Source: an uncultured Anaerolineae bacterium (lineage in GTDB: Bacteria > Chloroflexota > Anaerolineae > VGOG01). From it: a stretch of DNA of 64,000 nt. Of the stretch, positions 63,051-63,993 are shown piece after piece. The translations under genes were made by a program, and so were the position numbers. The DNA is taken from NCBI GenBank assembly GCA_964390805.1, contig CAYMKL010000019.1:9352-73351 (forward strand), in the 5' to 3' direction. Numbering within the stretch: the stretch's first letter is position 1; every line of letters begins with the position of its first letter. The notes beneath the pieces were generated by a model. The model searched no databases. It worked only from the letters and a program-made list of their open reading frames with translations, and was not told where the DNA came from.

Positions 63051-63993
63051 ATGCCTAAAGATGATCACAAGAAGCTTGGCAAGACTCTACTGGAGAGCTT
63101 GGAAGTCAAACCCGGCAACCTAGGAGAAGCCCTCTTTGAGCTATATGAGATTGCCGGAGATTGCCTCCGGAACGATCAATGTGACGAAGCCTTTCAATGT
63201 TGTAGGACTGCTCTGAACCTTTGCGATGGGCTGAAGTCAGAAACCGAGTTGAATAGCGGCCTAGACCCCTCTTACGCACGAGCCATCTTCTATGCATACA
63301 TGGGCACGAGTTATTTGAATCAAGGAAAGCTAAAACATGCACTGGACTGTTATGACAAGAGCAGGAGCCGGCTGCATGGTAATCTTTGGCATGATCGTTG
63401 GAACGAAGGTCTATTACGGTGCACAATAGGCAAGTTATATCAATGGACTGGTAAGCTCGAGGATGCCTTTCTTGCCTTCCAACAGAGTCTCTTTTGCTTG
63501 CAATCCGTGACCAGTGAGAACAAAGATCCAAGTGATCTCATTGTGAAAGCCCAGGCGGAATTAAAAGAAACGTGCCGACTACTTCGAGACTCATTGAAGA
63601 ACAAGGGCAAGCCGCGGGGGGCCACCCGAGTGAAACATCCTGACGTGCACTCAGCCGAAATCACTAGAATCCCTCTTGTTGCAAAGATCGCAGCAGGCTC
63701 TCCTATTCTGGCAGAAGAAAACATCGAGGACTACCTGTTTCTAGACAAGAACTACGCCAAAGATGCTACCTTCGCCTTGCAAGTACAAGGGGTGAGCTTA
63801 ATCAACGCGGGCATTCACAATAATGATGTTGTGCTCATCAGGGAACAACCCATTGCAAACAATGGAGACATAGTGGCAGTAGTATTGACCGACATAGATA
63901 CTGAAGCTACCCTGAAGCGCTTCTATGAAGAAGAGACACACATACACCGATTATGCTTAATTCCACAGAGCGGTTTCAGATTTGCCATCTGAT
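63051..63993 (+). CDS. TPR-like N-terminal domain fused to LexA-like S24 autopeptidase domain (no HTH)
   Basis: C-terminal region collinear with the LexA CTD: IPLVAKIAAG|SPILAEENIE (Ala-Gly cleavage site), QVQGVSLINAGIHNNDVVLI (Ser nucleophile), TLKRF (Lys); N-terminus helical/TPR-like; ATG 63051 follows the upstream stop. Confidence 0.7.

Follow-up and report, generated by a model that had tools for sequence, protein, structure and literature searches.

The window analysed here is a 64,000-nucleotide stretch of a contig from an uncultured Anaerolineae bacterium (Chloroflexota). At its right-hand end lies a cassette of forward-strand genes encoding, in order, a SIR2-STAND protein, a STAND NTPase with a TPR array, a radical SAM/SPASM enzyme, an SPFH/flotillin-like protein and a protein, here called TPR-S24, in which a LexA-like S24 peptidase domain follows a TPR-like helical domain. 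The same order is found in the related loci L001-L006, and in relatives of the cassette the TPR-S24 gene is followed by one encoding a 373-aa protein that matches nothing in Pfam or PADLOC. The genes and features are as follows.

54603..54631, + strand: perfect 12/12 sigma-70 consensus, TTGACA-17-TATAAT, ~290 nt upstream of the SIR2-STAND start
54891..57032, + strand: SIR2-STAND protein (Pfam SIR2_2, E=2e-23; PADLOC ThsA-type SIR2; likely start ATG 54919)
57044..60022, + strand: STAND NTPase with TPR array
60026..61150, + strand: radical SAM/SPASM enzyme
61304..63037, + strand: SPFH/flotillin-like protein, polytopic (4-5 TM), Pfam Band_7, with an EA-rich coiled coil and an acidic Pro/Glu tail; conserved upstream partner of TPR-S24
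63051..63992, + strand: TPR-S24 gene, 313 codons, C-terminally truncated relative to homologues of 352-377 aa
63051..63605, + strand: N-terminal TPR-like helical domain, aa 1-185, 8-9 helices (Pfam TPR_1, AF2, Foldseek)
63606..63668, + strand: basic linker, aa 186-206, predicted disordered (pLDDT below 50)
63669..63716, + strand: cleavage-site region IPLVAKIAAGSPILAE, with invariant A, G and P columns, aligned to LexA A84-G85
63717..63947, + strand: retained S24 catalytic core, aa 223-299, including Ser249 and Lys289
63949..64000, + strand: non-homologous tail past the breakpoint, aa 300-313 (from 63948) followed by TGA TGA, running off the window

The TPR-S24 gene begins with an ATG that has GGAGG 8 nt 5' of it, and the stop codon of the SPFH gene is 13 nt upstream. 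Pfam identifies two domains in the protein and no others: Peptidase_S24 (PF00717) at aa 208-298 (E=1.4e-19, 70.3 bits against a cutoff of 23.3) and TPR_1 at aa 80-104 (30.9 bits against a cutoff of 27.8). Unlike ordinary LexA homologues, which carry PF01726, the protein has neither this domain nor an HTH nor any other DNA-binding domain in Pfam, and there is no TM segment. The LexA equivalog model TIGR00498 is matched by the C-terminal part alone (89.7 bits, below the cutoff of 110.95), and a PDB search with the window protein returned LexA C-terminal domains as the top matches, with UmuD and CI-type repressors also matched. Proteins of this family are named either 'hypothetical' or 'repressor LexA' in the databases; for TPR-S24 proteins the latter annotation is wrong and misleading.

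Synteny with L001 begins at 54646, just past the sigma-70 consensus. When the surroundings of the operon promoter were searched for an SOS box, a single GAAC-N4-GTTC turned up, at 53198; this equals the chance expectation, and the site lies away from the promoter. In L001 a homologue of ORF 32359-33648 directly precedes the cassette. In the window the two are separated by ~21 kb (33654-54646) encoding ABC transporters, an amidase, an HD-CE response regulator and a 1636-aa histidine kinase with seven GAF domains, and thus either the cassette or the ~21-kb block has moved. In L089 a 66-aa ORF (6651-6851) that could encode a precursor peptide is found directly before the radical SAM/SPASM gene; the corresponding interval in the window (60022-60026) contains no equivalent small ORF.

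Active-site residues and structure models

Alignment with E. coli LexA places A84, G85, S119 and K156 of that protein in invariant columns with A215, G216, S249 and K289 of the window protein, the codons for which, read from the DNA, lie at 63693-63698 (Ala215 and Gly216), 63795-63797 (Ser249) and 63915-63917 (Lys289). The serine and lysine proposed in the first-pass annotation are therefore confirmed, and the absence of this dyad, which the annotation had named as a finding that would overturn its reading, is ruled out by the same alignment. The cleavage site itself has to be corrected: the annotation had placed it at AAG|SP, whereas homology to A84|G85 of LexA puts the bond at AA|GSP, with Ala215|Gly216 as the predicted scissile bond. 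The A215-G216 pair, which fits the Ala-Gly (or Cys-Gly) bond expected N-terminal to an S24 core, sits within IPLVAKIAAGSP and is invariant across the family, and the A-A-G-x-P, G-x-S and K elements are likewise invariant in P0002-P0016. Compared with the C-terminal domains of genuine LexA proteins, the S24 catalytic core shows 45-53% identity. The alignment is shorter than had been claimed, however: rather than the C-terminal 120 aa aligning position by position, only aa ~207-299 do so (positions 1-89 of 116 in the Pfam profile). Judged from these sequences, intact members of the family are likely to cleave themselves.

Structure prediction, put forward earlier as a check, gave a TPR fold for the N-terminus and a LexA-like S24 domain for the C-terminus of a full-length relative. 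In the AF2 model of full-length P0002 the S24 core is confidently predicted (pLDDT 85-96), and its Foldseek superposition on the C-terminal domain of E. coli LexA (7ocj) has a TMt of 0.84 and an rmsd of 2.0 Å. Ahead of its final strands the family core has an insertion of ~35 aa, a helix and a strand, that LexA does not have. The cleavage loop (aa 213-223) is placed without confidence, at pLDDT below 50. A separate AF2 model of the N-terminal 200 aa, built from a deeper alignment, shows an 8-9-helix TPR fold (pLDDT 88, pTM 0.82) resembling CTPR3 (1na0, TMt 0.84), HOP TPR2A (1elr, TMt 0.83) and PcrH/SycD; these three-repeat TPR matches reach TMt 0.8-0.84 with modest Foldseek E-values. The description of the N-terminus as helical, TPR-like and not DNA-binding holds up, given the TPR_1 match, the predicted fold and the lack of an HTH. 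A LexA-derived S24 protein has, in other words, swapped its DNA-binding domain for a TPR module of 3-4 repeats.

Relatives and conserved gene linkage

Distant relatives of the protein came from an exhaustive phmmer search with the N-domain alone, word-index searches with the same domain yielding almost nothing. The exhaustive search matched the whole N-domain in ~14 clusters at 50% identity, the distant full-length matches being 24-39% identical, and the domain is found in several architectures.

N-domain + S24: P0123, P0131, P0132, P0134 (phmmer); P0270 (profile search)
N-domain + nSTAND1 + S24: P0140
N-domain + STAND ATPase: P0128
N-domain + S24 + TIR: P0164
N-domain + S24 + other C-terminal domains: P0127, P0142

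The same S24 clade, insertion included, also occurs in fusions with an nSTAND1 NTPase (P0012) or with a lone TM helix (P0013-15). In loci L173-L176 the TM-anchored form (P0014) is encoded between a 140-aa protein without a Pfam match and an ABC-type ATPase, on contigs that are short.

Not all family members can be proteases, since Lys156 is replaced by Arg in both P0127 and P0164 and Gly117 additionally by Glu in P0164; on sequence grounds these two are probably not active. In each of them another LexA-like Ala-Gly motif lies C-terminal to S24, with a TIR or a helical domain beyond it. We considered whether P0164 might release its TIR domain through the two motifs that flank S24, but this idea is weakened: the motifs are present, yet with K156R and G117E the protein probably does not cut itself. 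P0176 resembles P0127 with the S24 domain excised exactly between the two Ala-Gly motifs.

The TPR-S24 family is rare. All of the members seen are from metagenomes or MAGs, the closest being from a Chloroflexota MAG. A scan of 185,579 GTDB species representatives returned ordinary LexA genes only, with the family not found among them, and no member was found on viral contigs. In an alignment-based scan of metagenomes LexA genes dominated the output, and two family loci only came from it. L127 and L154 turned out to encode plain LexA with an HTH.

The first-pass annotation had also tied the gene to its STAND and SPFH neighbours, and the wider family bears this out. An SPFH gene lies immediately upstream of TPR-S24 in six lineages (the window with L001-6, L087 and L089; L092; L178; L184/L185; L181; and L171), across which N-domain identity to the window protein is ~25-80%, and TIR, SIR2 and STAND domains recur beside or fused to the family. 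L087 and L089 keep the block of SPFH, TPR-S24 and 373-aa genes but have other STAND, SIR2 and PglZ-like genes upstream. The gene orders in the remaining lineages are as follows.

L092: SPFH, double-TIR, TPR-S24
L178: SPFH, TIR, TPR-S24, with CHAT/REC genes adjoining
L184, L185: SPFH, small ORF, TIR, TPR-S24
L181: SPFH, 78-aa ORF, N-domain-S24
L171: two SPFH genes, then an N-domain-S24-TIR fusion (P0164; loci L171/L172)

A TIR gene thus stands between SPFH and TPR-S24 in four loci (L092, L178, L184 and L185), the TIR domain is fused in P0164, and a SIR2 gene lies upstream of the STAND-S24 fusion P0140. For the TIR and SIR2 domains, the highest-scoring models are of defence type. In PADLOC-DB 2.0, TPR-S24 and SPFH have no match, and only the SIR2, TIR and radical SAM neighbours match generic effector models. 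In L185 (5728-6778) TPR and S24 are encoded by two overlapping ORFs of 218 and 140 aa, either through an assembly frameshift or as a natural split.

The SPFH partners in the window, L001, L087, L089, L178 and L181 form one polytopic family (4-5 TM), in which the window protein is 64-72% identical over its full length to the L178 partner and 33% identical to that of L181. Those of L171, L184 and L185 are far more distant (24-26% identical). All of the SPFH partners end with an acidic Pro/Glu-rich tail, noted at 62960-63037 in the window and in the proteins of L001, L087, L089, L178, L181 and L171. The modelled TPR domain resembles peptide-binding domains of the HOP/SycD type, and HOP binds an acidic C-terminal peptide; an interaction between tail and TPR is an idea that this resemblance raises. 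In the 588-aa double-TIR protein of L092 (1104-2870), an insert at aa 148-241 is 76% identical to the C-terminal segment of the neighbouring SPFH protein and 53% identical to aa 481-548 of the window SPFH. As a matter of sequence likeness, this hints that the L092 TIR protein may co-assemble with an SPFH cage.

The truncated window copy

The copy of TPR-S24 in the window is not complete. Its closest relatives, P0002-P0011 (47-82% identity) and P0016 (31%), are 352-377 aa long and all run ~45 residues past the ...THIH of the window protein, of which aa 300-313 (RLCLIPQSGFRFAI) are unrelated to them. What is absent is the equivalent of LexA 179-202 together with the family-specific ~35-aa insertion, so that the complete catalytic beta-core with its C-terminal strands is present in the full-length homologues and lacking in the window copy. 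Nucleotide homology to five related loci (73-86%) ends at 63943-63948 in every comparison, and in the last 52 nt of the window the reading frame continues for 14 unrelated residues to two stop codons. The missing S24 C-terminus was not found elsewhere in the window, and no other copy of the 52-nt tail was found in the window, in the fetched loci or, by exact match, in the metagenome and viral contig sets.

On balance, we lean towards the view that the gene in the window is either a defunct remnant or the product of a chimeric assembly, from which no folded S24 domain would be made and nothing switched here, whatever the intact family does. The abrupt end of homology at the same point in all five comparisons, the Pfam match that stops at profile position 89 and the absence of the missing segment from the rest of the window all favour this view, and the related contigs L087-L090 likewise stop ~200 nt downstream, a sign that the region may be hard to assemble. 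Against this, the remaining cassette is intact, and an identical 313-aa protein (P0001) is on record from a 73,351-bp NCBI contig, placing the stop inside the contig rather than at its end. In addition, dN/dS for the retained part is 0.16-0.19 relative to the relatives, the same as among intact genes. This ratio indicates that the retained part is under purifying selection, and since it is as low as in intact genes, the lesion is either recent or an assembly artefact. As assembled, the window copy is without the final strands of its S24 core, which makes folding or cleavage unlikely, and it is probably inactive.

L087, L088, L089 and L090 are four independent contigs that all end 84 nt into the conserved 373-aa downstream gene (MFARRE[LF]DWLNH...), a pattern suggestive of a repeat or of a junction that varies between strains.

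A proposed proteolytic switch, its trigger and its significance

For the intact family, the reading to which we give an even chance is that TPR-S24 is a LexA-derived proteolytic switch operating in undescribed, SPFH-linked NADase/STAND conflict cassettes, putatively directed against phage. As parts of that same evenly balanced reading, TPR-S24 would be the obligate partner of a polytopic SPFH/flotillin-like scaffold, and the effectors would destroy NAD, being TIR proteins in the compact SPFH-TIR-TPR/S24 triads and, in the window, the SIR2-STAND protein with the second STAND and the radical SAM enzyme. Beyond the residues, the fold and the neighbourhoods, the steps that follow are what we infer. 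In the resting state the TPR domain would hold a partner, our guess being the acidic C-terminal tail of SPFH or else an effector. A trigger would move the cleavage-site loop into the Ser249/Lys289 active site; cutting of Ala215-Gly216 would part the TPR module from the S24 core; and this single-turnover cut would license the NADase/STAND effectors, leading to NAD+ depletion by TIR or SIR2-STAND. The likeliest trigger would be the one to which LexA, UmuD and lambda CI respond, the RecA-ssDNA filament (RecA*), which forms when a phage replicates or DNA is damaged.

The features of LexA that determine RecA* binding have been described as a pocket formed by F111, L113 and V153 that receives F203 of RecA, an acidic patch (D150/D151/E152), and contacts in the cleavage-site region such as R81 and E86 (PMC9926225). 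At the corresponding positions the window clade has F, L, A, D-x-D-x-E and K/R, conserved as in real LexAs, although these residues are not specific to RecA binding; some also serve fold or catalysis, which makes their conservation a weak argument. The alanine is unremarkable, position 153 being A in 103/104 ordinary LexAs. LexA has been crystallised as a quadruple mutant (1jhe; L89P Q92W E152A K156A) that is reportedly hyper-cleavable, and of the residues changed in it E152 belongs to the acidic patch. As far as alignment can tell, the clade has kept what a LexA needs for stimulation by RecA*. RecA* is the single most likely trigger, and a plausible one since the contact residues are conserved, albeit at somewhat less than an even chance. 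We regard as distinctly unlikely the more specific proposal that the S24 domain is the dedicated RecA*-filament sensor of an immune system, with cleavage taking place on the SPFH cage and loss of the TPR clamp freeing or activating TIR or SIR2-STAND so that infection is aborted.

Self-cleavage in response to something other than RecA* is possible but, in our judgement, on the unlikely side. Candidate triggers include a change in the SPFH cage or membrane, a TPR ligand, a nucleotide made by TIR, or proximity induced within a STAND oligomer once activated. Of all the partners, the one conserved most tightly is a scaffold of the membrane and not a gene related to DNA, S24 is fused directly to STAND NTPases (P0012 and P0140) and to a TM anchor (P0013-15), and the family-specific insertion in the core could alter docking in the RecA groove or dimerisation. 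There is also a precedent in IrvR of Streptococcus mutans, itself still an HTH transcription factor, in which LexA-like autocleavage is uncoupled from RecA; set against this are the retained RecA*-contact residues and the description, in the same source, of the other characterised Ala-Gly S24 self-cleavers as RecA-dependent (PMC7101444).

A further alternative is that the cassette is not immune at all, SPFH and TPR-S24 forming a membrane-stress or protein-quality-control module to which the SIR2, TIR and STAND neighbours are coincidental or regulatory. The lack of any PADLOC match for SPFH or TPR-S24, the empty search of viral contigs and the window flanks, which hold ABC transport, amidase and GAF-kinase genes rather than a classic defence island, would fit such a module. 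We nevertheless find it improbable: TIR, SIR2, STAND and CHAT domains recur beside or fused to the family on unrelated contigs, the TIR and SIR2 domains are of defence type by their best-matching models, and the cassette occupies a different genomic position in close relatives.

Several known systems resemble parts of the arrangement. TPR-S24 shares with LexA (TIGR00498) the Ala-Gly site, the Ser/Lys dyad, the PLVG/AAG-P cleavage-site region and the RecA*-contact residues, but differs from it in having no winged helix, in its TPR domain and ~35-aa core insertion and in its place in an SPFH/NADase operon. In UmuD and lambda CI-type proteins, too, S24 self-cleavage changes the function of the attached module. 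UmuD is evidence that an S24 protein need not bind DNA to function, but it has a short N-terminal arm only and its partner is UmuC, whereas CI has an HTH, and neither is linked to SPFH, TIR, SIR2 or STAND. SIR2-STAND/Avs-type and TIR-based (Thoeris-like) systems share with the cassettes their NADase effector domains and STAND NTPases with TPR sensors. An immune-type protein with a built-in self-cleaving domain that licenses later effector release is represented by the FIIND of NLRP1 and CARD8; its fold and chemistry (ZU5-UPA) are unrelated and it is eukaryotic, making the parallel an analogy.

The stomatin pair PH1511/PH1510 (NfeD/STOPP) and HflK/C-FtsH likewise combine an SPFH scaffold with a protease, and PH1510 uses a Ser-Lys dyad. 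PH1510 is, however, a membrane-bound ClpP-clan S49 enzyme with an OB-fold that cuts stomatin in trans, whereas TPR-S24 is a soluble S24 protein with its own cleavage site; of the NfeD/STOPP features, the conserved SPFH operon is found here (in six lineages) but the membrane-anchored ClpP-clan protease and OB-fold are not. To our knowledge, no characterised S24 enzyme cuts anything but itself or its dimer partner, which counts against a role in trans. That TPR-S24 acts in the manner of PH1510, or of FtsH with HflK/C, trimming the scaffold or a client rather than itself, is accordingly very doubtful: the gene pairing is conserved and SPFH-protease pairs are an established theme (PMC3795559, PMC4208085), but the LexA-like cleavage-site region is conserved inside the TPR-S24 protein itself, no similar motif is found in the SPFH, TIR, SIR2, STAND, radical SAM or 373-aa proteins, and TPR-S24 lacks both a membrane anchor and the NfeD OB-fold.

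Self-cleavage by S24 domains is itself well known; what is new is the architecture of this self-cleaver and the system in which it is found. Every well-studied S24 self-cleaver that we know of is a transcription factor or UmuD. No system in PADLOC 2.0 or in the literature searched has an S24 or SPFH component, keyword literature searches found no description of an S24/SPFH conflict-type system, and S24/LexA goes unmentioned in such a context in the conflict-system surveys PMC7159879 and PMC8195603 and in a 2026 survey of STAND proteins, one of TIR systems and one of PSP/Band-7 proteins.

If the switch proposed here is real, an SOS signal would be read post-translationally by an immune-type machine; if instead the LexA switch has come to respond to some new trigger, that would be equally informative. 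Should TPR-S24 prove to be the RecA* sensor of an immune system, it would connect the SOS signal directly, with no transcriptional step, to an effector of cell suicide, and both an S24 peptidase and an SPFH scaffold would for the first time have a role in immunity. The SPFH-TIR-TPR/S24 arrangement, roughly 3.5-4 kb in L178 and L184, is a compact and testable candidate system, and one that would provide bacterial SPFH proteins with a concrete partner and a readout.
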